64,000 bases of DNA from an uncultured Erysipelotrichaceae bacterium (lineage in GTDB: Bacteria > Bacillota_I > Bacilli_A > Erysipelotrichales > Erysipelotrichaceae): positions 12,381-76,380 of the forward strand of contig CAYJGK010000003.1 in assembly GCA_964370065.1 (NCBI GenBank), given 5' to 3'. The notes beneath the pieces were generated by a model. It did no database searches and had not been told where the DNA came from. It saw only the letters and a program-made list of their open reading frames with translations. Below, in pieces: positions 8,601 through 43,992 of the stretch. How positions within the stretch are numbered: the stretch's first letter is position 1; every line of letters begins with the position of its first letter. A program made the translations under genes and the position numbers.

Positions 8601-8667
8601 CGTTCTTTTTATTATCACATGTATGTTGTAAGAATATTTTATATACTAATAAAAGAGGTGGTGGCAT

Positions 8668-10222: not shown

Positions 10223-10273
10223 AAAGAAAAAGCATGTGCTATAATCAAAAAGTTAAATTTTAGAAAGAAGGAA

Positions 10274-10924: not shown

Positions 10925-10928
10925 ATTT

Positions 10929-10953
10929 AAAAGAGGCAGCGCCTCTTTTTTTT
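10929..10953 (+). terminator. intrinsic terminator
   Basis: aaaagaggc-agc-gcctctttttttt. Confidence 0.8.
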
Positions 10954-10965
10954 AAACAAATAAAT

Positions 10966-10993
10966 AAAAAACACTTCAGCAGTGAAGTGTTTA
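10966..10993 (-). terminator. intrinsic terminator of the hemolysin III gene
   Basis: acacttca-gcag-tgaagtgt hairpin with a T-run on the minus strand. Confidence 0.75.
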
Positions 10994-19827: not shown

Positions 19828-21003
19828 AAAAACAAAAAATTATTCTTTTATAAATAAATCAAAAAAAATGGTATTTTATCATTTATTTTTTTCATTGTCA
19901 AATAAAAATAAATAAAAGTTGTACAAATTATAATTAAGTGTTATCATGAAGGTGACAAATAACGGTATTTAAAATTTTAAATATCACCAAATTTTAAACT
20001 GACGAAAATTTGCCCTTTGTAGATTAGATTAGAATAGACTAGTAAACTTACCTGTAGTAAGTGTTTTAATTGTCCCTAAGCAATAACACTATAGAAGAAT
20101 GGAATATCATTCATTTAAATATTACCTTAATCCTAATAATCTTCGCAATTAGAAAGGAAGCTTTTTCCTGTGATTAAGTAATAGATATAAAATAGCGATT
20201 GCTAACAGATTTGCTATTTTACTAATCAGTATATCGATTGGTTTTATGAATCTGTTAAAACAGTGTTATACAAATTTGTATAATGCTAGCGTTTATTCTA
20301 TTGATTGCCCTGTAATTACAATTTATTATTCCTATACGCCTGTTTGTTATATGTAACTAGCCATGGATAAATAGCTTATGTAATGAAAGAGGTGTTAGAA
20401 TTTAATGTATTTAACAATGGAATAAACGATTCTCATTGGTTCTAAACAAGTATTGATTTTATTGAATAGAGTGTGTTAGGTATGGTATAAGCAGACAATG
20501 TATAACAAAGAAATAATACAATTTGGAATAAAGGAAGATCTAGTTATTCTAATAAACTTTTCAATCAAATGTTGGGGAATATTTGTATTCATACTTTTAG
20601 AATTGTAGTAATTATGATCATGAAAAGAATGTATATCATCGTTAACTTTGTTATATTAGAAGTGTATGTGGAAAAATGAGTTAACTCAATGTAGTTGCTA
20701 CTTTGATGCGATATAAAGATGCTAACGGGAATATGCTCTGTTTTAGTAGATAGCACTTATGTTATTATATTGATCACAGTTCTCTATTTTGATGCTTAAA
20801 CTCATCCAAATGGAATAGCATTTAGTATCGATTTGTGTATGAAATGGTATTCGTTTATGAAGGGAAGACAGGAACCAATGTAGGAAGAGTACATCTTCGA
20901 GCATAGAATTTTGAGGAAGTGGTAAGCATGAATAAGTCACTTCAAATAGTTTATCAGAATGTATAGCAGTATGGAAATTAAGATATTAGCATAGTAGAAA
21001 GAT

Positions 21004-21035
21004 AAGAGTGAACGGTGGGTTCACTCTTTCTTTAT
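21004..21035 (+). terminator. intrinsic terminator closing the ORF-free 19.8-21.0 kb region
   Basis: aagagtgaac-ggtg-ggttcactctt followed by tctttat. Confidence 0.6.
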
Positions 21036-21100: not shown

Positions 21101-21129
21101 TTGACCCTTTACTAGAATGAACGTATAAT
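21101..21129 (+). promoter_or_regulatory. sigma-A promoter of the riboswitch/ECF operon
   Basis: TTGACC (21101-21106), 17-nt spacer, TATAAT (21124-21129). Confidence 0.8.
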
Positions 21130-21145
21130 GAAGCCACAAGTGAAT

Positions 21146-21312
21146 AAAGCAAATCATATATGGGGAAACAGGTGTAAATCCTGTGCGGTCGCGCCACTGT
21201 AAAAAACGTTCGTTTTAAGTCAGAATGCCAGATTTGTTTAAACCAATTTACGACGATAAATTGTTTGTGTTAAACAAAGGTTATTTTCATTGTAAAATAA
21301 TCTTATTTTTTT
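21146..21312 (+). promoter_or_regulatory. cobalamin riboswitch (compact, AdoCbl-variant/class-II-like aptamer) with terminator expression platform
   Basis: P1 aaagcaaatc (21146-21155) pairs with gatttgttt (21231-21239). Core GGGGAAACAGGTGTAAATCCTGTGCGGTCGCGCCACTGTAA. B12-box-like AAGTCAGAATGCCAG. Antiterminator tttgtttaa (21233-21241) pairs with ttaaacaaa (21270-21278). Terminator aaggttatttt (21277-21287) pairs with aaaataatctt (21294-21304), followed by a T-run. Confidence 0.85.
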
Positions 21313-21331: not shown

Positions 21332-22174
21332 ATGGAACAAGGATTTAAAAAATATAGTGCTTATGTGCTAGTGATGTATTTCTTTGGCATGATTGGACTG
21401 AGTATGTTTATTCGCAATCCCATATATATATCTATATCCTTTATTGCTGGATTTAGTTTATTATTAATTATAAAGCCCAAAAGAATCGTATCAATTTTAT
21501 TATCATTTATGATTTTATTCATTACTTTCACACTTCTTTCCCCACTGTTTAGTGTGTTACACTTTCACTCCCTTCATCAAATCATCCAAGATGCGTACAC
21601 TATGCAAAACATGAGTTTTGCGTTTGTAAATGCAGGGTTATTACTAAGTGTTATTTGTTGGTGTGTGAATTATCAAGAGTGTATAAGTAGTGATAAGGTT
21701 ATGTTTGTATTTGGCAAAATATTACCTATTTTTTCATTACTGATAACAATGATTAATCGACTGATTCCTAATTATATATATAAATATAAGATGATATTAC
21801 AAGCTCGATTGGGAATCGGAAAGCAGAGTGCAACAAAGCGATTTTATAAAATAAAAGAGGGAGCTTTGATGATGAGTTCACTCACATCAATAGCCTTTGA
21901 AGACGCATTAATACAAGCGGATAGTATGAAGGGTCGTGGATGGGGTTCAAAAAAAAGAACATACTTTAAAAATACGAGAATGAATCTAGAAGATAAGAAA
22001 CTAGGATTACTAATCATCGTATTGTTGTTGGTTTGTATAGGGTTGTTGCTACAGGCACAAACTGGCTTTATCATGTATTGTAGTTATAGTGCTTATACAT
22101 TATATGCAACTTTACCGTTGTTTATTATAATTTGGGAGGAAATAGTATGGAACATTTCAAGATTGAAAATTTAA
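21332..22174 (+). CDS. ECF transporter transmembrane (T) component, EcfT/CbiQ family, copy 1
   Basis: 280 aa, 5-6 TM. C-terminal coupling-helix motif ADSMKGRGW. Clear paralogue of the protein at 24490-25404. Confidence 0.8.
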   Translation: MEQGFKKYSAYVLVMYFFGMIGLSMFIRNPIYISISFIAGFSLLLIIKPKRIVSILLSFMILFITFTLLSPLFSVLHFHSLHQIIQDAYTMQNMSFAFVNAGLLLSVICWCVNYQECISSDKVMFVFGKILPIFSLLITMINRLIPNYIYKYKMILQARLGIGKQSATKRFYKIKEGALMMSSLTSIAFEDALIQADSMKGRGWGSKKRTYFKNTRMNLEDKKLGLLIIVLLLVCIGLLLQAQTGFIMYCSYSAYTLYATLPLFIIIWEEIVWNISRLKI

Positions 22175-23808
22175 GCTTTGCGTATCCAAATATGGAGCAA
22201 AAAGTATTAAGTAATATAAATTTTACTGTGAATAAAGGAGATTATGTATTAATTTGTGGAAAGAGTGGTAGTGGAAAAAGCACGCTACTAAAGCATTTAA
22301 AACCTCCGCTAACACCTTTTGGAAAAACGACGGGAATCATTCATTTTAATTCTAAAAAAATAGAGAACTTAACTTTGTATGAGCAAAGTAGTCAGATTGG
22401 GTATGTCATGCAAAATCCAGACAATCAAATTGTAACCGATAAAGTGTGGCATGAATTAGCCTTTGGTTTAGAAAACTTAGGTGTTACACAGCAAGTGATT
22501 CGAGCACGAGTAGCAGAAATTGCAAGTTATTTTGGTATCCAAGATTTATTTCAAAAGAAGGTGAATGAATTGAGTGGTGGTCAAAAACAATTATTAAACT
22601 TAGCGTCTATCATGGCAATGCAACCAAGTGTCTTAATATTAGATGAACCAACCTCACAATTAGATCCGATTGCCGCAAACGATTTTTTAAATACATTGAA
22701 GAAAATAAATGTGGAATTAGGAACCACTATTATTATTAGTGAACACCGATTGGAAGACATCTTTCATGTAGTTGATCAAGTAGTGGTTTTAGAAGCTGGT
22801 CAAACCATTGTGAAAGGAGCACCAAAAGAGGTGGCGAAACATTTGTGTATGACACAAAATATGATGTATCATGCACTGCCTTCACCTACTCAAATTGCTT
22901 ATGAAATGGGAGAACAAGAAGAGCTTCCTCTAACTGTAAGAGAAGGTAGGAACTGGTTATCTGTGCACTGTGGAACACAAGAGCTAAAATACAAAAAAAT
23001 AACAATTCCTATTCCAGAACAATCGAACAAAGAGTATGCTATTCATATTAAGGAAGCATGGTTTCGTTATGAAAAAAATGGGAAAGATATATTAAAAGGA
23101 TTATCTATGCATGTAGAAAAAGAAGAGTTTTATGCCATTGTTGGTGGTAATGGGGTTGGCAAATCAACTTTATTGCAAGCACTTTGCAAAATCAATCCGA
23201 TTTATCGGGGAAAGATTATGATTGATGGCAGACCATTAAATAAGATAAAGAACCAAGAATTATTTCAATCTAACATTTCAATGTTACCTCAAAATCCATT
23301 GAGTTTATTCGTGAAAAAAACAGTACGTGAAGAATTAATAGAGGTATTAGTACATCACACAGATATTCATAAAGTTATGCAGATAGCGACACTTTGTGAA
23401 ATTGAGGATCTATTTGATAAGCATCCTTATGATCTATCTGGAGGGGAAGCACAAAGAGTAGGATTAGCTAAAGTATTATTAACTAATCCAAAAATCTTAT
23501 TACTAGATGAACCTACTAAAGGAATTGATAACTTCTTTAAAATACAATTAGCAAATATTTTGAATAAACTAAAAGAAAAGGGAGTCACTATTATCATGGT
23601 GAGTCATGATATTGAGTTTTGTGCAAGATATGCTGATCGAGTATCGATGTTCTTTGATGGTGATATTATAAGTAGTGGACAAACTAACCAATTTTTTTCA
23701 TCAAATAGTTTTTATACAAGTAGTGCGAATCGAATGAGTCGTCATATATTTGAAAATGCAGTGAGAAATGAGGATGTGATTACATTATGTCAAGAGAACA
23801 AAATTTAA
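22147..23808 (+). CDS. ECF transporter ATPase, fused duplicated ABC domains (EcfA-EcfA')
   Basis: Two Walker A motifs (GKSGSGKST, GGNGVGKST), two LSGG signatures (LSGGQKQ, LSGGEAQ) and two Walker B motifs (ILDEPT, LLDEPT). The ATG at 22147 with GGGAGG RBS is preferred over 22132. Confidence 0.9.
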   Translation: MEHFKIENLSFAYPNMEQKVLSNINFTVNKGDYVLICGKSGSGKSTLLKHLKPPLTPFGKTTGIIHFNSKKIENLTLYEQSSQIGYVMQNPDNQIVTDKVWHELAFGLENLGVTQQVIRARVAEIASYFGIQDLFQKKVNELSGGQKQLLNLASIMAMQPSVLILDEPTSQLDPIAANDFLNTLKKINVELGTTIIISEHRLEDIFHVVDQVVVLEAGQTIVKGAPKEVAKHLCMTQNMMYHALPSPTQIAYEMGEQEELPLTVREGRNWLSVHCGTQELKYKKITIPIPEQSNKEYAIHIKEAWFRYEKNGKDILKGLSMHVEKEEFYAIVGGNGVGKSTLLQALCKINPIYRGKIMIDGRPLNKIKNQELFQSNISMLPQNPLSLFVKKTVREELIEVLVHHTDIHKVMQIATLCEIEDLFDKHPYDLSGGEAQRVGLAKVLLTNPKILLLDEPTKGIDNFFKIQLANILNKLKEKGVTIIMVSHDIEFCARYADRVSMFFDGDIISSGQTNQFFSSNSFYTSSANRMSRHIFENAVRNEDVITLCQENKI

Positions 23809-24500
23809 TATATACAATAGGATTTAGTGTAGTCGGTTTACTCATTTTAATTGTATTCCAAAGTCTGAAAATAAATTTTTATTTAACAAGTAGTGTTTTG
23901 ATTTTATTTGCATTATTTGCTTTCTTTCTAGCGTTTGAAAAAAAACAAATACAAGCTAGAGAAATTATTGTTTTAGCAGTCTTATGTGCCATTGCAACAG
24001 CAGGAAGAGTTGTCTTTCAAGTCATTCCTTTTGTTTCATTCTTAGTTGGCTTTGTCATTATAACTGCAGTAAGTTTTGGGCCTAATGCAGGGTTTATTTG
24101 TGGGGCAGTGAGTGCCTTTATGAGTAATATCAGTTGTGGACAGGGACCTTGGACACCTTGGCAAATGTTTGCTTTTGGAATGGCAGGTTTTATTATGGGG
24201 AGCCTTTACTGTAAGCAAAAAAAGCAAGTAAATAAAGTGATTTTGACGATTCTCTCATTTGTAGTCGTATTTATAGTAGTGGGACCTTTACTTGATTTAA
24301 GTGCTTTATTTACTGTGAACCAAAGTATGTTATTCAATATAACGCAGTATAAAGCGTTGTTAGCAACTGGCTGGATTGCTAATTTCATACATGCTACATC
24401 TGTCGCAATATGTGTATATTTCTTATCTGAACCAATGTTTGATAAGCTAAACCGCATTAAAATAAAGTACGGAATGATGAAAGTTAAAGATGAAATTTGA
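23787..24500 (+). CDS. ECF transporter substrate-specific (S) component (CbrT-like candidate)
   Basis: 237 aa, about 6 TM. GPNAGFICGAVSAFMSNISCGQGPWTPWQMFAFGMAGFIMG is typical of ECF S components. Overlaps both neighbouring genes. Confidence 0.75.
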   Translation: MSREQNLIYTIGFSVVGLLILIVFQSLKINFYLTSSVLILFALFAFFLAFEKKQIQAREIIVLAVLCAIATAGRVVFQVIPFVSFLVGFVIITAVSFGPNAGFICGAVSAFMSNISCGQGPWTPWQMFAFGMAGFIMGSLYCKQKKQVNKVILTILSFVVVFIVVGPLLDLSALFTVNQSMLFNITQYKALLATGWIANFIHATSVAICVYFLSEPMFDKLNRIKIKYGMMKVKDEI

Positions 24501-25404
24501 TCAATACCATCCACTCATTAATTTATTATTCTTTGGTATTGTATTTTATGTGAGTGCGATTGCTAATCATCCAGTATACGTAACGATTTCATTTCTAATT
24601 GCATTTCTTTACTACATTGCATTAAAAGGCATAAAAGGATTGTGTATTAACATAATATTGCTTATACTAGGAAGTGTATATTTTATATATTATGTGAGCT
24701 TTCATCACTTTGGAATAACGCCCATCGCACAAACAATAGTGGATAATAGTTTTACACTGGAATCCATTGTCTTGGGTTTGATTCAATATATAAAATTAGT
24801 CACAATATGCATGTGGTTTAATTGCTTTGTTGATGTGTTTAGTGCAGACAAAGTAATGTATGTACTAGGTAAATTCACACCCAAACTATCCCTGTTTATA
24901 TCGGTGTTTTTACGCTTTACTACTAAAATAGCATATACAACTAAAAAAACATTACAAGCACAAAAAGCAATTGGTAAAGGCATCCATCAGGGTCGCCTTT
25001 TAAAGCGAATAGGGAACGCTAAAAGAGTTTGCTCCATTGTTGTTGTTTGGTTTTTAGATGATTGTATGGATGCATCTAAAAGTATGATTGCTAGAGGATA
25101 TTCCTTAAAAAATAGAACACACTTTAGCCAATATCGATTTGATAATCGAGATCGCTTCTTTGTAGTCTATGTTATGACTTTACTCGCCATTCAACTAGTG
25201 GCATATTTATTAGGTCAAATGGTTGCACTATACAACCCAATGATTATTATTGATCCAGTGACAATAGGTAGTTATGTGTTTTATAGCACGTATGCAATTT
25301 TGTTGTTGTTGCCAATGATGATACAGATAAAAAATGAGATATTATTCGATAAAATGCTATATCGAAATAAAGGAAAAGGAAAAGGGCGTGTTATGCATGT
25401 CTAG
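24490..25404 (+). CDS. ECF transporter transmembrane (T) component, EcfT/CbiQ family, copy 2
   Basis: 304 aa. ASKSMIARGYSLKNRT coupling motif. SADKVMYVLGKFTPKLSLFISVFLRF parallels SSDKVMFVFGKILPIFSLLITMINRL of copy 1. Confidence 0.8.
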   Translation: MKFDQYHPLINLLFFGIVFYVSAIANHPVYVTISFLIAFLYYIALKGIKGLCINIILLILGSVYFIYYVSFHHFGITPIAQTIVDNSFTLESIVLGLIQYIKLVTICMWFNCFVDVFSADKVMYVLGKFTPKLSLFISVFLRFTTKIAYTTKKTLQAQKAIGKGIHQGRLLKRIGNAKRVCSIVVVWFLDDCMDASKSMIARGYSLKNRTHFSQYRFDNRDRFFVVYVMTLLAIQLVAYLLGQMVALYNPMIIIDPVTIGSYVFYSTYAILLLLPMMIQIKNEILFDKMLYRNKGKGKGRVMHV

Positions 25405-25412
25405 GTAAAAAA

Positions 25413-28400
25413 ATGAAAAAAATATATACGGGTATATTAAGTTTACTAATTATGCTTACACTACTACCAATCGCTTTTACAAGTGAGGGAGTTGTTGCTC
25501 AAGAAACGGCAATTGCTGTTCCATCCGATTGGGAAAATGATTTATGGTTAAATAGCGACTTTGAACAAATGCAAGTAGGAGATACGTATACCATCTTTTC
25601 AAGAAGAATTCCAGAATTAGTAGATGATTTCATCTATAATACAGGATTAGTCGTACCCAATATGAATTATCGTGTGATTTCTGGAGATAGTGTTATAGTA
25701 GAAAAGGTAGCTAATGATCCTGACCAAAAGGCTGTAGTGACTGCTAAAAAAGAAGGAATTTCTATTATTGAAGTCACGTATGATGAAACAACTATGGAAG
25801 GTGCTTTTGAAACGTTTGGTGCCTCTTCTTCAGTGAACACTGCGTATATGGTAGTAGAAGTGAATAATCAATTGGCAGATGTGGTGATCACTTCTAATAC
25901 ATTAGACACACTAACAACATATGATACAATTTATTATACAAATAGTGAAACCACATCTTTCACCTTTGATGCAAATGTCACCAAAGGTGAAGTTACAAGT
26001 GTGACTTGTAATGGAGAGACATTAATAGGGAATCAATCTACTTATACAGCCCAATTAGAAAATAGAGCTAATATTATTGGTATTAGTGCCACTTATGACA
26101 ATAAAAGCATCACCAAATATTATATTGTGGATGCTCGTTATATTACAATTAATGTAAGTAATGTAAGCCGCCCTAATGCACCTATTCAAGAGGGGGATGA
26201 AGTGGCAATTAGTTTTACTGGTATTAGTGTGCCGATTCCTAAATTAGCAGGGATATATAACCCCTGTTACACGGATAAGTGGGGGGGGACAAGTAAAGCA
26301 TCAGCAGTTCAATATAAGATGAATAATGAGTTATACTATGGGCGCTCTGGACAATGGGATTTAGCAACCAATAATACGATTTCTTTAACTTTTGATGAAG
26401 CTGGATCCTATACATTTGATGAGGGAACAATTGAAATGAATTGGTGGGGAGAAGCAGCAGATGCACACAAAGCTAAATTTAATAATGCGTATGCAGGTGG
26501 AGGAAGTATGTCTGATCAGCACCAGGCATTTTATAGCCAGTTGCCAAGTTTTACAATTGATGTAGCTGCGTATCAAGAACATGAACTAACTAGTATTAGT
26601 TTAAATAAAAAAGAATTAAGTATCGAAGAAAAAACAAGTGATGAATCATTAGTGGCTAGTTTTGCACCAATAGAAACAACACAACGCGATGTAATTTGGG
26701 AAAGTTCAAACCCTAGTATTGCAACAGTCGATCAAAATGGAAAAATCCAAGCGTTACAAACTGGTTATGTGACGATTACAGTAAAAAGTGCAATCGCACA
26801 CAATGATGCATCTGCTTCTTGTAAAGTACAGGTATTTGCTGAACTACCTGCTACAGTAGAAGAAAAAGCAGGCTTATTGGAAAAAATAGAAGAGGCTAAA
26901 TTGGTGATACATAATGAAGCAGAGTCTGCACAAGCAAGTTGGCTAACATTACAAGAAGTATTAAAAAAAGCAGAAAAAATGTATGCGGATGAAGAAACTT
27001 TATATATGGATTCTTATACGATGACGAAGAATTTAAATGCGGCTATTTTTAATTATAATGATGCTGTTTCATTTATCTATACAATGACGCAAATGCAAAT
27101 AGATGAGCAAACAAAGGTAACGATCACATTCCCTAATTTAAAAATACCTGAAAATTCAGGTATTAATCCGACTTGGAAATGGGAGATAAAAACGGATTTA
27201 GAAGGGTATGAATCGATAGAGATTGATACGGCATATGAAGATGCAAATCAGTTTATATTCACCATTGCAGAACCAATGGATACTGTATTTGCAATTGAAT
27301 CTGCTGTGTTAGTACAATCTTATCGTTCACATCCTCAGTTTCCATACTTTACAACAGTTTCACACTTTGATGACAAAATTCGTAACATTACTGTTACATT
27401 AGGAAATGTAGAATTGATTCAATCGATTCATGTTGCACAAAATTCTATACAACTAGTGAATAATGAAATAAAAAAGGTGAACTATACGATTAATCCAGCA
27501 ACGGCGACTAAACCGGTTATTAACTTTACTTCCAGTGATCCCAACATTGCAAAAGTAGATAATGAAGGTAATGTAGTTGGAGTTGGTGACGGAAGAGTCA
27601 ATATTATTCTAACCTCTAAATATGAAGGGGAAAGTGCAATAGTGGTAGTAGATGTAGAAAATATTGATGTTCGTATTCAAAATATTATGAATAAAATCAA
27701 TGCTTTAGGAGAGGTAACTTTCGCTAGCGAAGCACAATTAAAAGAAATTAGTGCTTTATATGATACATTACCACAAGAGCGTAAAGCGGAAGTCACTAAC
27801 TATGAAGTGGCAAAAGAAGCAGAAAATACAATTGCAGAAATGCATGCCATTCAAGATGATATTGCACAATTAGACATACTTTCTTTAGACACACAAGCAG
27901 AAATAAAAGATGTGATTGCTCGTTTTGAAGCATTGAGTTATGAGCAAAGAGCGAAAATTAGTAATGCGAAAAAATTATTAGATTTACAAGATGCTTTAAT
28001 TGCTAATGAAGATAATTTAAGACAAGCACAAGATGTAGTGAATCAAATTATTGCCTTACCGAACATTACGTTAGATAGTGAATATGCATTACATCAAGTA
28101 GTATATAATTATGAAAAATTAAGTGAAGAAGCCAAAGCGTATGTAACTAATTTAAACACATTGCAACAAGCACAGGCTGCGTACAAAAAACTATATGATC
28201 AACATAGAGCGCAATTTGTAGTCGATAAAATTTATGCGATTGGCGCGGTTAATGCAAGTAAAGCGCAATTAATTAATGATGCTTTATTAGCTTATGAAGT
28301 GTTATCAATAGAACAAAGAGCATATGTTACGAATTATCATGTATTACTGTTATCTAAACAGCTGTTAGATTCCTTACTCCATACAGTGGAACCAGAGTCA

Positions 28401-29144
28401 CCACAAGTTATTCTTCCTACTGATGAAGCGCAAACTGAAAAAGAAGAGCAGGAAGAAACAATAAGTCATACTCAATTTACAGAATCTTTTAGTGCTATTG
28501 ATTTACATAACTTAGATGCAGGGGCAATTGAAGAATTAACAACATTATTAATTGAGATACAACAATTAAGTGATGAAGAATACGAAGCCTTAAGCAAATT
28601 GATAGATTTAGATGCATTTAAAGAAGCAGTAGCCAAATATAATCAAACGAACACAGAAGTAGGAGTAGGTGTTTCTAATGTAGAATGGTATGTGAAGCTA
28701 CAAGCCAAAGTAGTGGAACTTACCAAAGCGCAACTTGATGAAATTGCACATATGATGGAAGATGCGACATTATTGTATGTAGTGGATTTATCATTAGATA
28801 ATATCTTAATTAATAAAAAACATAATTTTGACGAACCGGTTCAAATAGAAATGGATGCTTCTAATTTAGAAAATGTGGAAAGTTATCAAACAATTGTCGC
28901 AATTCATTTTGGCGAAGAAGGGATTGAATACATCCCTTGTACAGTAGATGGCGGAAAAGTAATATTAGAAGCTAGTTCATTCTCGGCATATGCATTTATT
29001 GGAACAACTAAATCATGGAATGAGTTTATTGACCAAGCCGATCCTCAACCTAGCAACACTGTGTATTTATATATGATTGCGATTATTGCAGTAGGTGGTT
29101 TAATCATTGGAAGCATCATGTTGAAAGGAAAAAAAGATGAATAA
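25413..29144 (+). CDS. large secreted, C-terminally membrane-anchored surface protein with Big_2 Ig-like domains and helical repeats
   Basis: 1243 aa. Signal peptide (LLPIAFTSEGVVAQE). Two clear Big_2 domains (VIWESSNPSIATVDQNGKIQALQTGYVTITV, INFTSSDPNIAKVDNEGNVVGVGDGRVNIIL). A FIVAR-like helical segment and four to five helical repeats of roughly 57-60 aa each. Acidic linker, terminal TM helix plus a KGKKDE tail, and no LPXTG motif. Confidence 0.85.
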   Translation: MKKIYTGILSLLIMLTLLPIAFTSEGVVAQETAIAVPSDWENDLWLNSDFEQMQVGDTYTIFSRRIPELVDDFIYNTGLVVPNMNYRVISGDSVIVEKVANDPDQKAVVTAKKEGISIIEVTYDETTMEGAFETFGASSSVNTAYMVVEVNNQLADVVITSNTLDTLTTYDTIYYTNSETTSFTFDANVTKGEVTSVTCNGETLIGNQSTYTAQLENRANIIGISATYDNKSITKYYIVDARYITINVSNVSRPNAPIQEGDEVAISFTGISVPIPKLAGIYNPCYTDKWGGTSKASAVQYKMNNELYYGRSGQWDLATNNTISLTFDEAGSYTFDEGTIEMNWWGEAADAHKAKFNNAYAGGGSMSDQHQAFYSQLPSFTIDVAAYQEHELTSISLNKKELSIEEKTSDESLVASFAPIETTQRDVIWESSNPSIATVDQNGKIQALQTGYVTITVKSAIAHNDASASCKVQVFAELPATVEEKAGLLEKIEEAKLVIHNEAESAQASWLTLQEVLKKAEKMYADEETLYMDSYTMTKNLNAAIFNYNDAVSFIYTMTQMQIDEQTKVTITFPNLKIPENSGINPTWKWEIKTDLEGYESIEIDTAYEDANQFIFTIAEPMDTVFAIESAVLVQSYRSHPQFPYFTTVSHFDDKIRNITVTLGNVELIQSIHVAQNSIQLVNNEIKKVNYTINPATATKPVINFTSSDPNIAKVDNEGNVVGVGDGRVNIILTSKYEGESAIVVVDVENIDVRIQNIMNKINALGEVTFASEAQLKEISALYDTLPQERKAEVTNYEVAKEAENTIAEMHAIQDDIAQLDILSLDTQAEIKDVIARFEALSYEQRAKISNAKKLLDLQDALIANEDNLRQAQDVVNQIIALPNITLDSEYALHQVVYNYEKLSEEAKAYVTNLNTLQQAQAAYKKLYDQHRAQFVVDKIYAIGAVNASKAQLINDALLAYEVLSIEQRAYVTNYHVLLLSKQLLDSLLHTVEPESPQVILPTDEAQTEKEEQEETISHTQFTESFSAIDLHNLDAGAIEELTTLLIEIQQLSDEEYEALSKLIDLDAFKEAVAKYNQTNTEVGVGVSNVEWYVKLQAKVVELTKAQLDEIAHMMEDATLLYVVDLSLDNILINKKHNFDEPVQIEMDASNLENVESYQTIVAIHFGEEGIEYIPCTVDGGKVILEASSFSAYAFIGTTKSWNEFIDQADPQPSNTVYLYMIAIIAVGGLIIGSIMLKGKKDE
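27670..28380 (+). repeat. four tandem, diverged helical repeats (roughly 57-60 aa each) inside the surface-protein gene; a fifth degenerate copy lies near 28480-28650
   Basis: Protein-level periodicity: ...INALGEVTFASEAQLKEISALYDTLPQERKAEVTNYEV..., ...LSLDTQAEIKDVIARFEALSYEQRAKISNAKKL..., ...LPNITLDSEYALHQVVYNYEKLSEEAKAYVTNLNTL..., ...IGAVNASKAQLINDALLAYEVLSIEQRAYVTNYHVL... Boundaries are approximate. Confidence 0.6.
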
Positions 29145-30318
29145 GAAAAATAAAATAGCGACTGGATGGATGCTGTTTGCGATTGGCTTGATCTTTTCTA
29201 TTAGTATATTATTTATAGGTAATGTAAAGGGTTGGTTTGTGACTCAGGTAAGTGATGAGATTTTACAAGTTGAGAGTACTAAAGGAGTTGCTAGTGTACA
29301 AAGAAATCATGTTGCTATACGCTTGGAAAAAGGAATGACTCTTAGTGAAAAAGATATAGTCACAACACAAGTTGGAAGTGAAATATCTTTTTCCTATCTT
29401 GATTCTTCTATCGTTACAATGCAAAAAACAAGCTTCTCATTAGAAATGCAAGAAGGAATACTCACTCTATTATTAGAGGATGGAACTATTTTTGTAGATA
29501 TGCAAAAACAGGATTCTTTGCAACTAGTCGTGCATGGCGAAACGCTTAATTTAACTCAGGCAACCGCTTTTATCCAAATACAAGATGGCTCTACTAACTT
29601 ATCTGTATTAAAAGGGGAAGTAGAATATAAAAAAGAAAAAATTGTTAGTGGGAAAAGTACAGTGCTAACGAGTGAAACTAAAGAATTAAGCGATGTACAA
29701 GTACAAAATTTTAATAATGATACATTATTATTAATGGCCAATTATGGTGATTTATACATTGATGCAAACACAATAGAAAAAGAAATAAAAAATAGAGATA
29801 AGGTGGTCGAATCAATCATCAACGATGAGGAAATTGAAATCACTACTACCAATCCAGATATCAAAGTGAGCGAACAACAAGAGACTCGTCAAGAACAAGC
29901 AACGCCAATTGTTGCAGCTACTGAAAAACAATATGTGTATATTGAAATCAACGCATACTCTATTTTAAACAATATGGATCAACTGCAAGTTGGTAAAGAT
30001 GTGTTTGTCCCTAATGATGGTGTTATTTTACCAATGACAAAGATTGAAATACAAGATGGAGATAGTGTTATGGATATTTTAAAGCGTCTTTGTGACGCAA
30101 CAGGTATTCAATTAGAGTACTCTTATTTACCTATATATGAGAGCCATTATATTGAAGGGTTGAATCATCTATATGAATTCGATTGTGGACAAGGTTCAGG
30201 TTGGGTTTATAAAGTAAATAACTGGAAGCCTAATTATGGAGTAAGTCAATATATAGTAAAAGAAGATGATGTTATTTCATTCAATTATACTTGTGACTAT
30301 GGAAATGATTTACAGTAA
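29137..30318 (+). CDS. N-terminally membrane-anchored FecR-like / DUF4430 (transcobalamin-beta-like) domain protein
   Basis: 393 aa. TM anchor (WMLFAIGLIFSISILFIG). FecR-type beta-sandwich pattern (LEKGMTLSEKDIVTTQVGSEISFSYLDSSIVTM...LEDGTIFVDM...VLKGEVEY). C-terminal DUF4430 signature (GSGWVYKVNNWKPNYGVSQYIVKEDDVISFNY). Confidence 0.75.
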   Translation: MNKKNKIATGWMLFAIGLIFSISILFIGNVKGWFVTQVSDEILQVESTKGVASVQRNHVAIRLEKGMTLSEKDIVTTQVGSEISFSYLDSSIVTMQKTSFSLEMQEGILTLLLEDGTIFVDMQKQDSLQLVVHGETLNLTQATAFIQIQDGSTNLSVLKGEVEYKKEKIVSGKSTVLTSETKELSDVQVQNFNNDTLLLMANYGDLYIDANTIEKEIKNRDKVVESIINDEEIEITTTNPDIKVSEQQETRQEQATPIVAATEKQYVYIEINAYSILNNMDQLQVGKDVFVPNDGVILPMTKIEIQDGDSVMDILKRLCDATGIQLEYSYLPIYESHYIEGLNHLYEFDCGQGSGWVYKVNNWKPNYGVSQYIVKEDDVISFNYTCDYGNDLQ

Positions 30319-30319
30319 A

Positions 30320-30354
30320 GAAAAATACCCGGTTCATTTGAATCGGGTATTTCT
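30320..30354. terminator. bidirectional intrinsic terminator (end of the ECF operon and of gdhA)
   Basis: aaaaatacccg-gttcatttgaat-cgggtatttct. Confidence 0.8.
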
Positions 30355-31710: not shown

Positions 31711-31872
31711 TTACTCAACTATTATAGCACAAAAAAAATATAGTGAACATAAATTTACATAAAACATCATTTATTTACATTTTCTTACATCGCAACTTGT
31801 AATATGTATATAAAACATGTGAAAGTTATTGTCAAATATTTAAAAATTTGGTACTATATAAAAAAGTAAATA

Positions 31873-32088
31873 TGATAGAGGCGCGATTTGTTATGAAGAT
31901 TGTATGAGAAGGCATTCGTTTATAAGAGAATATAATCAGAGGAACAATCGCCGAATGAATGAAACAGGCATGTTATATTCATGGTAGTATAGTGAATAAC
32001 TATACTATTGTCTTACCTAAAGTAAGGAGTGCTATCTTAAAGATATGAATATCATGTCAATAAGAAAAAACTCTTATTGGCTTTTTTG
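31873..32088 (+). promoter_or_regulatory. lysine riboswitch (L-box) with terminator
   Basis: Starts GATAGAGGCGCG. Contains ATCGCCGAATG and ...ATTGTCTTACC...AAGGAGTGCTATC closing P1. Terminator caataaga-aaaaac-tcttattg plus T-run (32058-32087). Upstream promoter TTGTCA-17-TACTAT with TG extension (31829-31857). Confidence 0.85.
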
Positions 32089-32107
32089 TTTTATCAGGAG
32101 GAAGAAT

Positions 32108-33391
32108 ATGAAAAAGATGATGAATATTGCTGGTGTTCCAGTGAATCAATTAGTAGAGGCATGTGGGAGTCCACTATATGTATATGATGAAAACAAGATT
32201 GATGAGCAAATTGAAACATATCAAAAAAACTTTGTTTCAAAGCATTTTGAAACGGAAATAATTTATGCTTCGAAAGCTTTTACTTGCCAAGCGATGCTTG
32301 CCAAATTAAAACAATATAACTGTGGATTAGATGTAGTGAGTGGAGGAGAATTATATGTAGCAAGTGTTGCAAATTATGAGGCTTCTAAAATTTATTTTCA
32401 TGGTAATAATAAGACATATGCGGAACTAGTGTCGGCATTGGATTATAATGTGCATACAATTGTTGTTGATAATATATATGAAATTGATCAATTAATTACA
32501 CTAAGTGAAGAGATGCATAAAAAAGTGCATGTTTTAATACGCTTGAATCCTAAAGTAGAGGCGCATACTCATGAATATATTATGACAGCAAATGCCGATT
32601 CTAAATTTGGGATTAGTGTGGATTTAAAAGAGGATATTCATGGTATGATTCAAAAAATAGAAGCGAGTGATGGAGTTACATTTGATGGATATCATTGCCA
32701 TATTGGGTCTCAAATTTTTGAAACAGAAGGATTTGTGCAAGCGATTAATAAGATGTGTGAATTCATTCAGTATACACAAGAAACATGGTCTACAAATGTT
32801 AAAGTGTTTAACATGGGAGGTGGATTTGGTGTCACTTATACAAGTGATGATACACCAACTCCAACTAGTGAAATGTGCCAAACATTAATTAACGCAGTAG
32901 AAACTAATAATGAAAAATATAATTTACAATTAGAAAAAGTATGTATGGAACCAGGTAGAAGTATTGTTGCAGAAGCGGGCTATACAATATATGAAGTTGG
33001 ATTTATTAAACAAACGCAAAATAAACAATTTGCATTTATTAATGGTGGAATGGCGGATAATATTCGCCCTGCATTATATAATGCTAAATATCATTGTGAA
33101 ATTGCCAATAAGATGGATGAAAGTAAAACAGAAGTATATGATATTGCAGGTAAATGTTGTGAAAGTGGTGATATCATTATTCATGAAGCTTCTTTACCTA
33201 AAGTAGAAAGTAAAGATTTATTAGTTGTATTAAGTACCGGTGCTTATGGTTATACGATGGCTAGCAATTATAATCGTTTAAATCGCTTAGGAGTATATTT
33301 TGTAAAAGATGGGAAAGTACGTATGGTTGTGAAACCAGAAACGTATGCTCAGCAAATCCAAAATGATTGTGATGAAGAGGTTTCACTATGA
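32108..33391 (+). CDS. lysA: diaminopimelate decarboxylase
   Basis: Start at the ATG at 32108 (AGGAGG RBS). The ORF-track start at 32045 lies inside the riboswitch terminator. PLP-dependent Orn/DAP/Arg decarboxylase motifs (YASKAF, HCHIGSQ, GGGFG, EPGRSIV, CESGD). Confidence 0.9.
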   Translation: MKKMMNIAGVPVNQLVEACGSPLYVYDENKIDEQIETYQKNFVSKHFETEIIYASKAFTCQAMLAKLKQYNCGLDVVSGGELYVASVANYEASKIYFHGNNKTYAELVSALDYNVHTIVVDNIYEIDQLITLSEEMHKKVHVLIRLNPKVEAHTHEYIMTANADSKFGISVDLKEDIHGMIQKIEASDGVTFDGYHCHIGSQIFETEGFVQAINKMCEFIQYTQETWSTNVKVFNMGGGFGVTYTSDDTPTPTSEMCQTLINAVETNNEKYNLQLEKVCMEPGRSIVAEAGYTIYEVGFIKQTQNKQFAFINGGMADNIRPALYNAKYHCEIANKMDESKTEVYDIAGKCCESGDIIIHEASLPKVESKDLLVVLSTGAYGYTMASNYNRLNRLGVYFVKDGKVRMVVKPETYAQQIQNDCDEEVSL

Positions 33392-34206
33392 TTTCTTTTG
33401 AAAAATATCATGGTTGTGGAAACAACTTTGTTATCGTAAATGAAAGGGATGTAAAGCATCTTGATTATGCTAGTTTAGCAAAAAAAATGTGTGATGTATC
33501 AACAGGTATTGGAGCAGATGGGTTAATGGTAGTCGTTGAAAAGCCACTGACTATGCTATTTTATAATTGCGATGGAAGTGAAGCACCGATGTGTGGAAAT
33601 GGCATTCGTTGTTTTGCTAACTATGCTTACCATTACTTAACAAGAGATAAGCGTTTCACAATTGAAACATTAGCTGGTCCGATGCATGTAGAAGTAAAAG
33701 GAAGTGAAGACTTTAGAGTAGAAATCAATATGGGAAAACCAAATTGGGATGCTTCATTATTAAAATTAAGTCGACCTATGAAGAATACGCATACGTATAC
33801 ATTAGAGGTATTAGATAAAACATTCACCTTACATAGTGTGTTTCTAGGAACGATTCATACTGTTGTATTTTGCAATCTGATTATAGAAAGTGATGTTGAA
33901 AAATATGGACAAGCCATTTGTGAGCATCCATTGTTTAAAGAAAAAACAAATGTTAATTTTGTAAGGGTAGTTAATCGTGGTGAAATTGAAGTATTAACAT
34001 ATGAAAGAGGAGTAGGGATTACAAAAGCTTGTGGGACAGGTTGCTGTGCAAGTGTCTTATTTGCTCATTTATTAAAATTTACAAATTGTAAGGTAGATGT
34101 TAGGTTACCACTAGGAACACTTAAGATTAGTTTGAAGAATGATGTATTTATGGATGGACCTGCAAAAAGGGTCGCGATTGGTCAATTTGAGGAGGGCAAT
34201 CTATGA
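33388..34206 (+). CDS. dapF: diaminopimelate epimerase
   Basis: 272 aa. HGCGNNF N-terminus and two catalytic Cys motifs (MCGNGIRC, ACGTGCCA). Confidence 0.9.
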   Translation: MISFEKYHGCGNNFVIVNERDVKHLDYASLAKKMCDVSTGIGADGLMVVVEKPLTMLFYNCDGSEAPMCGNGIRCFANYAYHYLTRDKRFTIETLAGPMHVEVKGSEDFRVEINMGKPNWDASLLKLSRPMKNTHTYTLEVLDKTFTLHSVFLGTIHTVVFCNLIIESDVEKYGQAICEHPLFKEKTNVNFVRVVNRGEIEVLTYERGVGITKACGTGCCASVLFAHLLKFTNCKVDVRLPLGTLKISLKNDVFMDGPAKRVAIGQFEEGNL

Positions 34207-35078
34207 TGGTAAAAGGAAGTATTGTTGCATTAGTAACGCCGTTTGATGAAGTCGGAAATATTAATTTTGAAGCATTAGGTAAATTAGTTGAATTTCACAT
34301 TGCAAATGAAACAGATGCTATTTTAGTGTTAGGAACAACAGGGGAAACCCCCACGTTAACACATGAAGAAGATGCAAGCATTGTAGAGTTTGTTATTAAA
34401 AAAGCAAATAAACGTATTCCTATTTATGTAGGAGCAGGAAGTAATAATACGAATACGCAAATTACATATGCTAAAAAATATGAAAAAATGGGCGCAGATG
34501 CGTTATTAGTGATTGCGCCTTATTATAATAAAGCAAATGATGAAGGAATGTACCAACATTTTAAAACATGTGCAGATGCTGTAAACATTCCATTGATTTT
34601 ATACAATGTGCCTGGTAGAACGGGATGTGCTATTCCATATAGTGTTGTGAAAAGATTGGCTACACATAAAAATATAGCAGGAATTAAAGAGGCGAGTGGG
34701 GACATTTCTTACTTAGCTAAAATTTCAAAACTAGTCAATGATTCATTCTTAATTTATGTTGGAAATGATGATATGATTGTTCCCGCATTGTCTTTAAAAG
34801 CAGCTGGTGTCATTAGTGTAGTCGCTAATATTTTACCAAAAGAAACACACGAAATGGTTATGGCTTATCATGCCGGTGATCATCAAACAAGTATTGATTT
34901 GCAATTAAAATATTTAGATTTAATCAATGCTTTATTTATTGAAACAAATCCAATTCCTGTTAAAGAAGCTATGAATCATATGGGAATGCAGGTAGGAGGA
35001 TATCGCTTACCTTTATATCCAATGTCACAAGCTAATAAAGATATTTTAATTAAGGAATTAAAGGCGGTGAATTTATAA
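34203..35078 (+). CDS. dapA: 4-hydroxy-tetrahydrodipicolinate synthase
   Basis: 291 aa. GSIVALVTPF, GTTGE, YNVPGRTG, IAGIKEASGD (Schiff-base Lys). Confidence 0.95.
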   Translation: MMVKGSIVALVTPFDEVGNINFEALGKLVEFHIANETDAILVLGTTGETPTLTHEEDASIVEFVIKKANKRIPIYVGAGSNNTNTQITYAKKYEKMGADALLVIAPYYNKANDEGMYQHFKTCADAVNIPLILYNVPGRTGCAIPYSVVKRLATHKNIAGIKEASGDISYLAKISKLVNDSFLIYVGNDDMIVPALSLKAAGVISVVANILPKETHEMVMAYHAGDHQTSIDLQLKYLDLINALFIETNPIPVKEAMNHMGMQVGGYRLPLYPMSQANKDILIKELKAVNL

Positions 35079-35788
35079 TGAAGGTGGCATTAGTTGGATA
35101 TGGAACTATGGGTCAAATTGTTGAACAAAAATTAGTTGAAAAAAATCATAGTGTAAGTGGAGTTGTTTCATTAGGAATGTTAGAAAATCTAAATGAAATA
35201 AAAGAGGAGTTTGATGTCATTATTGATTTTTCACACCCTAGTTATTTAGACATGATTATTTCTTATGTAAAAGAAACAAATACGCCAGTTGTATTTGCAA
35301 CAACTGGGTATAGTGAACAACAAATTGCAGCAATTAAACTATTGGGAATGCAACACCCTGTTGTATACACTGCTAATTTCTCATTAGGTATTACCGTTAT
35401 GGAAGAAGTGTTACGAATGATTACACCTATATTAGAAGATAGTTTTGATATTGAAGTAATTGAAAAGCATCACAATAAAAAATTAGATGCACCAAGTGGA
35501 ACAGCTAAAATGTTAGTGGATGCAATAAATGTGAATCAAGCATATGAAGTCGTACATGCACGTGAAGGAATGGCTAAGCGTGGACAAGAAATTGGTGTGC
35601 ATGCTATTCGTGGTGGTAGTATCGTAGGAGAGCATAGTGTTATTTTTGCAGGAGAAGATGAAGTACTTGAAGTGAAACATGAAGCGCATTCAAAAAACAT
35701 ATTTGTCGTGGGGGCAATTAAAGCAGCCAGCTATGTGATCAGTAAGCCAGCTGGTTTATATACAATGAACGATGTCTTGTTTAAATAA
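35078..35788 (+). CDS. dapB: 4-hydroxy-tetrahydrodipicolinate reductase (short form)
   Basis: 236 aa. VALVGYGTMGQ Rossmann motif, EKHHNKKLDAPSGTA motif. Confidence 0.9.
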   Translation: MKVALVGYGTMGQIVEQKLVEKNHSVSGVVSLGMLENLNEIKEEFDVIIDFSHPSYLDMIISYVKETNTPVVFATTGYSEQQIAAIKLLGMQHPVVYTANFSLGITVMEEVLRMITPILEDSFDIEVIEKHHNKKLDAPSGTAKMLVDAINVNQAYEVVHAREGMAKRGQEIGVHAIRGGSIVGEHSVIFAGEDEVLEVKHEAHSKNIFVVGAIKAASYVISKPAGLYTMNDVLFK

Positions 35789-35804
35789 TGGATAGGAGAT
35801 ACAT

Positions 35805-37175
35805 ATGAATATAAAAGCAGTTATTTTTGATTTCAATGGAACATTATACTTTGATAGTGACTATCATGTGCAAGCGTGGGATGAAATGGCTAAAATTATC
35901 ACCAATCAACCATTAGATGATCAATTGAGGGTATTAATGCATGGTAAAAATAACGAAGAAATTATTCGTTTATTAAAACCTGGTATAGATGATGTAAGGA
36001 ATAAAGCGTATTCTTTACAAAAGGAAGCAATGTATCGTAAGATGTGTATGAATGATCAAGAAAACTTGCATTTAGTAGAAGGCGCGATTGCCTTATTCCA
36101 ATATTTAAAACAAGAAAATATCCCATTCACAATTGCGAGTGCCTCGATTAAAGAAAACATTGATTTCTTTATTGAAACATTTGGTTTAGATGAATACTTT
36201 GATGTAGATGCTATTATTTATGATGATGGGAACTATATGAATAAAGTAGATATGTTCACAACCGCTTGCCGACGCTTTCATATTGAACCATGTGAAGCTA
36301 TGGTAATAGAGGATAGTGTCACAGGAACAAGTCAAGCTAAACAAACAGGAATAGGGTGCATTATTGGAATGATGAGAACAGAAAACAATCAAACATTAGT
36401 AGATTGTGGAGCACATGCATGTATTTCCGATTTTACTCAATTTGATTATAACTTATTAAAAGAAAGAGGAACCAAAACAATGGAAGCAACAGAAATTATT
36501 CAATTTATTAGAGATTCAAAAAAGAAAACACAAGTAAAAGTATACGTATCTGCGACAGAAAAAATTACATTTGATGATGTGCAACAATTCGGATGTAAAA
36601 AAAGCCCAATTCTTATTGGGGAGTGGGATGTAATCGCTCCTCAGTTAGAAGCGAACAAATCATATATTACTGATTACTATGTAGAAAATAATGCTCGTAA
36701 CTCAGCAATTCCTTTATTAGATTTAAAAGGAATTAATGCTCGTATTGAGCCAGGAGCCATTATCCGTGATCAAGTAGAGATTGGTGATAATGCAGTCATC
36801 ATGATGGGTGCTACGATTAATATTGGTGCTATTATTGGGGCAGGAACCATGATAGATATGGGAGCAATTTTAGGTGGAAGAGCAACAGTTGGTAAAAACT
36901 GCCACATTGGAGCAGGTACTGTATTAGCAGGCGTAATTGAACCAGCAAGTGCGACACCAGTCATTGTAGAAGATGGTGTATTAATCGGTGCTAATGCGGT
37001 TGTAATCGAAGGGTGCCGCATTGGAGCAGGGAGTGTTGTGGCCGCAGGAGCAGTTGTAATTGAAGATGTCCCAGCAGGCGTAGTGGTAGCAGGATGTCCC
37101 GCTAAAATTATTAAAGAAGTAGACGATCAAACGTCTAGTAAAACGGGATTAGAAGAAGGATTAAGAAAAATTTAA
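35805..37175 (+). CDS. dapH: HAD-superfamily hydrolase fused in frame to tetrahydrodipicolinate N-acetyltransferase
   Basis: 456 aa. The N-terminal about 215 aa form a HAD-IA domain ([28 protein letters not shown]). From M226 (36480) runs a complete DapH ([23 protein letters not shown] plus hexapeptide beta-helix). AGAGGA lies 9 nt upstream of the internal ATG. Confidence 0.85.
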
Positions 37176-43779: not shown

Positions 43780-43992
43780 ATAAATACAAAGAACAGAAGG
43801 AGTATTTATTAAACATTTATAGAGAGCTTTTGGTTGGTGAAAAAAAGTAATGGATAATAAAGAAGGTAGTCTGGGAGTAGATTTTTTGAACTAGAGTAAA
43901 AAAATACGTCACTCGCGTTAAGAGTTAAGGTGTAGCAATACATAAATTAAGGTGGTACCACGAACATTCGTCCTTTGGGTGAATGTTTTTTT
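43780..43992 (+). promoter_or_regulatory. T-box riboswitch, valine specifier (GUA)
   Basis: Promoter TTGAAT-17-TATAAT (43744-43772). Stem I AGAGAG...GGTTGGTGA. Candidate specifier GTA at 43847-43849 followed by A. T-box AATTAAGGTGGTACCACG (43946-43963). Terminator gaacattc/gaatgttt plus T-run. Confidence 0.85.

Follow-up and report, generated by a model that had tools for sequence, protein, structure and literature searches.

A membrane-tethered transcobalamin-beta-like protein encoded beside an ECF-type transporter in a cobalamin-riboswitch operon of an uncultured Erysipelotrichaceae bacterium

Introduction

How do Gram-positive bacteria of the gut get hold of cobamides outside the membrane? 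Cobamide capture by Gram-positive gut bacteria, and by Firmicutes in general, is poorly understood compared with that by Bacteroides and E. coli (PMC8941943, PMC6977713). We analysed 64,000 nucleotides of DNA from an uncultured Erysipelotrichaceae bacterium (GenBank assembly GCA_964370065.1, contig CAYJGK010000003.1, positions 12,381 to 76,380, forward strand); this whole stretch is called the window below. An operon within it begins with an adenosylcobalamin (AdoCbl) riboswitch, encodes an energy-coupling factor (ECF) transporter and ends with the gene of a 393-aa protein (positions 29137-30318) that carries a transcobalamin-beta-like domain on a membrane anchor. We asked what such a protein does beside such a transporter.

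To our knowledge, ECF transporters are a class defined as lacking substrate-binding proteins. We consider it probable that the 393-aa protein is a membrane-tethered, substrate-binding-protein-like corrinoid receptor, accessory to a dedicated (group I) ECF-type cobamide importer.

Results

Domain architecture of the 393-aa protein

A preliminary description, made from the letters of the window, had proposed a membrane-anchored fusion of a FecR-like segment and DUF4430 at this position. The open reading frame (ORF) is real, translates to 393 aa and contains all peptides quoted in that description. An AlphaFold2 (AF2) model was built from 57 homologues and had a mean predicted local distance difference test (pLDDT) score of 88.6 and a predicted TM-score of 0.77; pLDDT was ~90 in the C-terminal domain. 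Pfam, AF2, Foldseek and the family matches and alignment divide the protein as follows.

29137-30318, + strand: gene of the 393-aa protein; transmembrane anchor, FecR-like domain, linker and transcobalamin-beta-like domain (ORF translation, Pfam, AF2, Foldseek)
29161-29229, + strand: N-terminal uncleaved transmembrane helix (residues 9-31) with a conserved juxtamembrane G-x-x-x-G-W-F motif (G28, G32, W33, F34)
29263-29694, + strand: FecR-like beta domain, residues 43-186 (Pfam, AF2, Foldseek, family matches)
29716-29823, + strand: two helices after the beta domain, residues 194-229 (AF2)
29824-29922, + strand: disordered acidic/polar linker, residues 230-262 (DEEIEITTTNPDIKVSEQQETRQEQATPIVAAT); AF2 pLDDT ~50; 10-88 aa long across the family
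29923-30306, + strand: extended transcobalamin-beta-like beta-grasp domain, residues 263-390, with the DUF4430 core at 308-385 (Pfam, AF2, Foldseek, family alignment)

The N-terminal anchor and the acidic linker were found as described. The protein has a single hydrophobic segment (residues 12-30 with a Kyte-Doolittle window; AF2 helix 3-31), located behind a lysine-rich stub, MNKKNK, in agreement with the positive-inside rule. Most of the protein should accordingly lie on the outer side of the membrane.

The FecR-like assignment held by fold and by family, and fell short by the protein's own score. PF04773 (FecR) matched residues 74-163 over profile positions 2-97 of 97 with 21.2 bits (E 3.9e-4), narrowly missing the gathering score of 24. 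FecR was matched at E<=0.01 by 43 of the 57 full-length homologues (best 4e-15). The best PDB matches of the AF2 model were FecR-type periplasmic domains, namely 4m0n (E 3.6e-6), which like 4m0h is the putative anti-sigma factor BDI_1681, and PupR 6ovk_R (E 1.6e-5), with a Foldseek probability of 1.0 for these. We base the assignment on the family-level matches and the fold, since the Pfam score of the protein itself falls just below threshold.

PF14478 (DUF4430) was matched by residues 308-385 with 54.5 bits (E 1.6e-14), clearly above the gathering score of 23.8, and by all 57 homologues. In the AF2 model, a helix (311-322) is followed by two strands (326-331 and 336-342), which gives a beta-grasp with a beta-hairpin insert after the helix. 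A conserved segment specific to the family (residues 263-307) precedes the Pfam core. Pfam found no PF01122 alpha domain, and the part N-terminal to the beta-grasp consists, in the AF2 model, of all-beta structure and two helices.

Likeness to the transcobalamin beta domain

The C-terminal domain had been likened to the beta domains of transcobalamin and intrinsic factor, and structure comparison bore this out. Foldseek matched it to the beta domain of human transcobalamin (5no0; E 4.9e-5, TM-score on the target 0.75, root-mean-square deviation 3.0 A), and further to intrinsic factor, haptocorrin and the bacterial DUF4430 protein 3u7z. Human transcobalamin itself matched PF14478 with 24.9 bits; the sequence used was 100% identical to PDB 5no0/4zrp.

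Alignment of the family profile to the transcobalamin beta domain is tentative (hhalign probability 21%) and agrees with the fold match. It places the family-invariant residues Y338, G351, W356, P365, G368 and Y372 opposite transcobalamin Y362, G372, W377, P386, G390 and Y394. The elements of the transcobalamin domain that touch B12 include a conserved hydrophobic residue of the hairpin, which stacks on the base (Burroughs et al., PMC1796856). A sequence-level link between the family and solved transcobalamin structures was sought and was not significant; fold comparison and the low-probability hhalign alignment join the two.

The isolated transcobalamin beta domain binds cyanocobalamin and cobinamide, and joins the alpha domain only when ligand is present (PMC5599065). 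A corrinoid binder made of a beta domain alone is therefore plausible.

Two cysteines, Cys350 (FDCG; 30184-30186) and Cys386 (YTC; 30292-30294), are invariant across the family in what is an extracytoplasmic domain of anaerobes. Judged from the sequences, they could form a disulfide or serve as metal or cobalt ligands. Four further cysteines (in CTIxIRC, NYGCS and WCYTC) occur in most members and are missing from the window protein and its closest relatives.

The operon and its ECF transporter

The gene had been described as the last of a B12-regulated operon, which the following features confirm.

21101-21129, + strand: sigma-70-like promoter TTGACC-17-TATAAT (11/12 consensus positions; a consensus match only)
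21136-21266, + strand: AdoCbl (B12) riboswitch aptamer in the operon leader (RF01482, 63.4 bits, gathering score 50, full-length 1-149)
21332-22174, + strand: T1, a 280-aa polytopic membrane protein and paralogue of the EcfT-like T2 (T1 and T2 cross-match the same ORFs; several hydrophobic segments)
22132-23808, + strand: fused ECF ATPase A-A' (PF00005 twice; TIGR04520 ECF_ATPase_1, 367.6 bits, cut-off 315)
23787-24500, + strand: ECF S component (PF07155, 50.2 bits, threshold 26.7; PF12822, 37.4 bits)
24490-25404, + strand: T2, EcfT-like transmembrane component (EcfT chains 5d3m_D at E 5.7e-5, 4huq_T and 4hzu_T)
25413-29144, + strand: 1243-aa surface protein with a signal peptide, three immunoglobulin-like (Ig-like) sandwiches, two Big_2 domains, helical repeats and a C-terminal transmembrane anchor
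30323-30352, + strand: terminator-like 13-bp hairpin with a T-run, closing the operon directly 3' of the stop codon of the 393-aa protein gene

The six + strand genes behind the riboswitch overlap or lie no more than 8 nt apart. The last of them starts at an ATG that overlaps the stop codon of the 1243-aa protein gene (ATGAATAA), with a GGA-rich ribosome-binding stretch just before it. A convergent glutamate dehydrogenase (GDH) gene lies beyond the closing hairpin, and a terminator-like hairpin at 21004-21028 lies upstream of the promoter-like site. The flanks hold unrelated housekeeping functions: MFS, GNAT, Tag, GDH and a lysine-riboswitch dap/lys operon.

With its A/A' ATPase, EcfT-type T and S component, the operon encodes an ECF transporter, and the 393-aa protein is none of these canonical subunits. 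Two paralogous T-like proteins flank A-A' and S; T1 gave no Pfam or PDB match of its own. The S component is of the RibU/FolT/CbrT type and not of the CbiM/NikM type. Its best solved relative was 6fnp_A (CbrT, the S subunit of ECF-CbrT), a weak match (E 1.3e-4, residues 52-135), and other S components came close behind (4hzu_S, E 7e-4; RibU, E 8e-3). Some 50 extra N-terminal residues with two more hydrophobic segments precede its canonical S fold.

Distribution and conservation of the family

The preliminary description did not know this domain combination as a characterised protein. This held in part: no study was found in the literature searched, and the architecture is not unique. It forms a family of at least about 100 sequence clusters (50% identity) in Clostridia and Erysipelotrichales, whose members the databases name only 'DUF4430 domain-containing protein'. 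Similarity to the homologues is far beyond chance (down to E 6e-99), and a word-indexed search returned 293 relatives, many of 390-470 aa with precomputed FecR and DUF4430 annotation. A scan with one representative genome per species gave at least 595 matching stretches. The matches listed came nearly all from Clostridia and Erysipelotrichales, with a few from Lactobacillales, and the nearest among them was an uncultured Erysipelotrichaceae metagenome-assembled genome (41% identity) with the identical six-gene order.

We called ORFs in 84 loci from the species-representative genomes and searched them with the operon proteins of the window and with hidden Markov models (HMMs) of the families. 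The loci encode 86 proteins with the 140-residue C-terminal domain (E<1e-40), and practically all of these adjoin the same set of ECF genes. Cultured species among the carriers are Blautia luti (L022), Lentihominibacter hominis (L007) and Proteiniclasticum ruminis (L082), and Blautia producta DSM 2950 (L071) has the lipoprotein-anchored type. Rfam detected cobalamin riboswitches in 13 of 19 distinct loci scanned, in ten of them on the same strand as and upstream of the cluster. One locus that lacks a riboswitch abuts cobT/cobU/cobS/cobC.

Three side observations concern these riboswitches. Locus L010 has three in tandem (at 7502, 8536 and 9567, within 7502-11173), each followed by a gene; two of these genes are DUF4430-like ORFs of 138 aa, almost identical to each other, and the remaining one is a transmembrane-FecR-DUF4430 homologue. 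A fourth riboswitch precedes the ECF genes of this locus. Two paralogous transmembrane-FecR-DUF4430 genes occur in L045 (6671-11209), with riboswitches at 8098 and 9689. In the Lachnospiraceae loci L022 (9448-9639) and L029 (9460-9656), the riboswitch stands beside a homologue on the opposite strand and would control the divergent gene and not the DUF4430/ECF cluster.

Conservation was measured as the mean frequency of the commonest residue in each segment.

Pfam core of the C-terminal domain: 0.81, the most conserved part
family-specific segment 263-307 (ILNNM..L..GK..VP..G): 0.68
transmembrane helix and juxtamembrane G-x-x-x-G-W-F: 0.58-0.63
FecR-like domain: 0.41
linker: 0.23

The membrane anchor region is thus better conserved than the FecR-like domain behind it. 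The N-terminal 235 residues were also used as a phmmer query against 1.84 billion representatives and gave 106 matches. Of 89 new matches, 59 had the C-terminal domain, and the remainder were nearly all fragments or frameshifted calls. Since the matches nearly always carry the C-terminal domain or are broken, we conclude that the N-terminal module is dedicated to it.

Anchor types and the FecR-like module

Among the 86 ECF-adjacent proteins, 46 have the transmembrane helix with a FecR-like N-terminal module, and 36 have only a single hydrophobic segment at the N-terminus with a spacer behind it. We compared anchor and gene layout in the loci whose ECF cluster is complete. A T-like gene follows the S gene in all 25 assessable loci of the FecR type, and T genes lie on either side in 23 of them. 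Five loci whose protein has the same lysine-rich transmembrane anchor without the FecR module have two T genes as well. The 21 loci with one T gene encode proteins with a different N-terminus, which in nine of ten that we inspected is a signal peptide of the lipoprotein kind, including a lipobox cysteine. The two-T layout co-occurs strictly with the transmembrane-anchored (KGWF-motif) protein, and the one-T loci have the lipoprotein forms.

Related loci tether the same C-terminal domain by a bare transmembrane helix or a lipoprotein anchor, so the FecR-like module is optional. The invariant design is a membrane tether, a flexible spacer and a transcobalamin-beta-like domain beside an ECF importer, with the FecR-like module as one of several spacers. 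This corrects the view of the segment as a FecR sensor domain: it is not an anti-sigma sensor, and is an optional stalk or docking module.

Discussion

A candidate corrinoid receptor for an ECF importer

Our interpretation of the 393-aa protein as a receptor for the neighbouring importer is supported by the AdoCbl-riboswitch operon, the transcobalamin-beta fold, the adjacency to ECF genes, the conserved tethering and an S component weakly closest to CbrT. The high conservation of the C-terminal domain and the dedication of the N-terminal module to it also count in its favour. The comparative evidence favours the picture of a putative corrinoid-binding beta domain held on a stalk beside the ECF transporter, and the family probably catches B12-type cofactors for this importer in gut Firmicutes.

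For binding, hand-off and docking we infer the following course. When intracellular AdoCbl is low, the riboswitch would open and the six genes would be made. Outside the membrane, the distal beta-grasp domain would approach cobalamin, cobamides or cobinamide from their nucleotide-loop face and bind them in the manner of the isolated transcobalamin beta domain. Moving through the space above the membrane on its flexible tether, it would bring the ligand back to the CbrT-like S component for ATP-driven uptake by the ECF module. The conserved transmembrane helix and G-W-F motif would hold the protein at the transporter, perhaps by contact with the additional T-like subunit. The FecR-like module would act as a rigid spacer, as a docking surface (e.g. 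for the 1243-aa Ig-like protein) or as both, and not as a signalling device.

Several points weigh against this interpretation. By themselves, ECF S components have a high affinity for their substrates and do not depend on binding proteins, so that the need for a helper is not obvious. The match of the window S component to CbrT is weak and covers 84 residues. The C-terminal domain resembles transcobalamin only weakly at the sequence level, and the family profile gave nothing significant against PDB sequences and no transcobalamin structure. In the site alignment, the individual transcobalamin residues are taken as putative B12 contacts. An alpha/alpha-toroid partner comparable to the alpha domain of transcobalamin is not encoded in the operon, so the affinity of the protein may be modest. 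The correlation of anchor type with a second T gene could reflect physical contact and equally shared ancestry. Six of the 19 loci scanned with Rfam showed no cobalamin riboswitch, and the full-text literature searched yielded no binding or transport data for any family member. A related ECF operon of Lactobacillus sakei (L. sakei), with separate transcobalamin-alpha-like and -beta-like proteins, was read as a heme importer (bioRxiv 10.1101/864751).

Alternative functions

The tethered beta domain might instead hold corrinoids as a store, or deny them to competitors, without delivering them to the S component. The evidence from fold and riboswitch would be the same, several paralogous DUF4430 domains sit in giant surface proteins of many loci, and surface B12 binders of Bacteroidetes have been proposed as extracellular reservoirs (BtuJ1, bioRxiv 10.1101/2025.07.01.662609). 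However, the gene lies strictly beside the ECF genes and often overlaps them translationally, the conserved transmembrane/juxtamembrane motif co-varies with the transporter subtype, and the protein is tethered at the membrane and not displayed on the wall surface. We regard a pure reservoir as unlikely. The identity of the ligand can also be questioned, and heme, another tetrapyrrole or a metal complex has to be considered. The L. sakei operon links secreted transcobalamin-beta-like and -alpha-like proteins to heme uptake (bioRxiv 10.1101/864751), a reviewer of Burroughs et al. warned that SLBB ligands may be diverse (PMC1796856), and the crystallised bacterial DUF4430 protein 3u7z is annotated as 'putative metal binding protein'. 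Against such a ligand, an AdoCbl riboswitch controls the operon and cobalamin riboswitches recur in relatives, one of which adjoins cobT/U/S/C; the S component is of the RibU/FolT/CbrT type and not CbiM/NikM; and the motif of the protein matches B12-contacting elements of transcobalamin in the tentative alignment. This makes a non-corrinoid ligand distinctly unlikely.

For other SLBB clades, such as ComEA and polysaccharide export proteins, binding to sugars or to the wall is assumed (PMC1796856), and the gene of the 393-aa protein is translationally coupled to that of the 1243-aa protein. An SLBB-type beta-grasp that binds cell-wall polysaccharide and helps to anchor or organise the giant surface protein would fit both. 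The domain belongs, however, to the transcobalamin-like clade, with its beta-hairpin insert after the helix, and this most conserved part of the protein tracks the ECF genes and not the giant protein, which several loci lack; a structural role is very unlikely. The FecR fold and the membrane-spanning topology would fit a transmembrane sensor that signals the presence of B12 outside the cell to a regulator in the cytoplasm. Only ~8 residues (MNKKNKIA) precede the transmembrane helix, leaving no room for an N-terminal cytoplasmic anti-sigma domain. No sigma factor gene was found in the operon or its flanks, and no sigma factor or kinase is encoded in the operon or conserved nearby in related loci. 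With ~8 cytoplasmic residues and no sigma gene nearby, the protein is not an anti-sigma factor. Related loci dispense with the module and keep the C-terminal domain, and the riboswitch already supplies regulation. An anti-sigma or signalling role of the FecR-like domain was rejected on these grounds, and the short cytoplasmic stub and the missing sigma gene essentially exclude the sensor as a whole.

Comparison with known systems

The beta domains of transcobalamin, intrinsic factor and haptocorrin share with the 393-aa protein a Pfam family (PF14478), the beta-grasp with hairpin insert and, in the tentative alignment, conserved aromatic, Gly and Pro positions in the ligand-contacting elements. 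The animal carriers are soluble and have an alpha/alpha-toroid alpha domain, whereas the bacterial protein is membrane-tethered and lacks it. Relative to the transcobalamin beta domain, ~20 additional conserved residues (ILNNM..L..GK..VP..G) are inserted between strands 1 and 2, and the protein also has the invariant Cys350 and Cys386.

The idea of transcobalamin-like B12 scavengers in Gram-positive bacteria beside CbiO/CbiQ-type transporters is not new, a correction to the preliminary description. It was published by Burroughs, Balaji, Iyer and Aravind in 2007 (PMC1796856) for secreted or surface SLBB proteins from Gram-positive bacteria with low GC, encoded in operons with CbiO-like and CbiQ-like genes, often with a second paralogous SLBB protein, and predicted to scavenge B12. 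That paper is older than the ECF concept and analyses neither riboswitches nor anchors. The fusion partners that it names are toroid, Ig, FIVAR, fasciclin and beta-propeller domains, and 'FecR' occurs in it 0 times. The core of the scavenging idea was thus put forward then as a computational prediction. Neither the FecR fusion nor any biochemical or genetic work on the family was found described in the full-text literature searched, and no experiments that followed up the 2007 prediction were found there.

The L. sakei system Lsa1836-1840 (bioRxiv 10.1101/864751), compared here by description only, likewise combines an ECF transporter with an exported transcobalamin-beta-like protein, Lsa1839, for which transfer of the ligand to the S component has been proposed. 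It differs in the heme claimed as ligand, in the separate transcobalamin-alpha-like Lsa1840 and in lacking a FecR-like module. ECF-CbrT of Lactobacillus delbrueckii (6FNP) is an ECF importer of cobalamin and cobinamide; its S subunit is the best solved, though weak, match to that of the window, and its EcfT matches T2. It belongs to group II, with a shared ECF module, and has no extracytoplasmic binding protein, whereas the window has a dedicated operon with a fused A-A', two T-like genes and two surface proteins.

BtuG, BtuH and BtuJ of Bacteroides are also lipid- or membrane-tethered surface B12 binders from riboswitch-controlled uptake loci that feed a transporter. Unlike the 393-aa protein, they have unrelated folds (a beta-propeller; a novel globular domain on PKD stalks) and serve a TonB-dependent outer-membrane transporter in diderms. 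BtuH and BtuG were absent from the top 50 Foldseek PDB matches of the 393-aa protein and of the N-terminal module of the 1243-aa protein. FecR/PupR anti-sigma regulators have a beta domain of the FecR (PF04773) fold behind a transmembrane helix. In contrast to them, the 393-aa protein has no cytoplasmic anti-sigma domain, sigma partner or TonB-dependent transducer, no STN subdomain was detected in it, and its module is optional. Binding proteins of Gram-positive ATP-binding cassette (ABC) transporters are tethered by a lipobox or a transmembrane helix beside their transporter. Those of the BtuF/FhuD class, for example, resemble our protein in holding the ligand domain near the transporter by such an anchor and a flexible linker; its domain is one small beta-grasp and not a two-lobe Venus flytrap, and its partner is an ECF transporter.

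A wider model and its significance

We extend the receptor interpretation only tentatively to a supercomplex of six components (T1, A-A', S, T2, the tethered receptor and the giant Ig-like stalk protein), which would pass cobamides across the wall and on to the S component. In this arrangement the transmembrane helix and G-W-F motif may plug into the second T-like subunit, and many ECF transporters of gut Firmicutes may own a dedicated membrane-tethered binding subunit. By analogy, the arrangement could be a monoderm counterpart of the BtuG/BtuH/BtuB relay of Bacteroides, and the invariant Cys350 (FDCG) might ligate cobalt like the BtuM cysteine. The bacterial ancestor of the beta domain of animal transcobalamin and intrinsic factor would then have a living relative in the 393-aa protein.

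If the receptor interpretation is true, ECF transporters, the textbook binding-protein-independent importers, gain a dedicated binding subunit. Among ECF vitamin transporters, the 393-aa protein is a candidate first case of an extracytoplasmic binding component. This is directly testable: the ectodomain is small and confidently predicted and should express easily. The family offers a way to approach selectivity for, and competition over, cobamides in the gut, and a bacterial model for the transcobalamin/intrinsic-factor beta domain.

Neighbouring surface protein and other features of the window

The 1243-aa protein probably belongs to the same capture apparatus. Its conserved N-terminal module of ~360 aa (residues 30-391, window 25500-26585) consists of three Ig-like sandwiches (pLDDT 75), for which Foldseek returned generic Ig matches only. 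The module has many invariant aromatic residues (YNP, QWDLA, WWG) and recurs in proteins of 450-630 aa. It is fused to DUF4430 in P0121 and in giant proteins of loci L010, L026 and L070, and a divergent DUF4430 domain is present in giant proteins of many other loci. The three-Ig module may be a second ligand-handling module.

The 1243-aa protein itself has no DUF4430 by the family HMM with all filters off, and a Pfam search for alpha-toroid or DUF4430 domains yielded Big_2 only. The idea of a hidden DUF4430 or alpha-toroid was rejected on these searches and on the generic nature of the Ig fold matches. A profile search with the N-terminal module returned no BtuH chain.

Residues ~780-1077 (window ~27750-28650) form about five helical repeats of ~50 residues each, with a motif like Y-x-x-L-S-x-E-x-[RK]-A-x-V-T-N. 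Their Pfam match was limited to a weak one to DUF3106, and they probably form a stalk.

Upstream of the operon promoter, a stretch of 1.2 kb (19830-21000) behind the Tag glycosylase gene contains no ORF >65 aa. Rfam found no significant family in it, and one sub-threshold match was at chance level. Downstream, a lysine riboswitch (31868-32042) lies ahead of a lysA/dapF/dapA/dapH-type cluster at 32045-37175. At 43780-43978, a T-box leader (129.8 bits) overlaps the beginning of an ORF of 889 aa, which presumably encodes an aminoacyl-tRNA synthetase.

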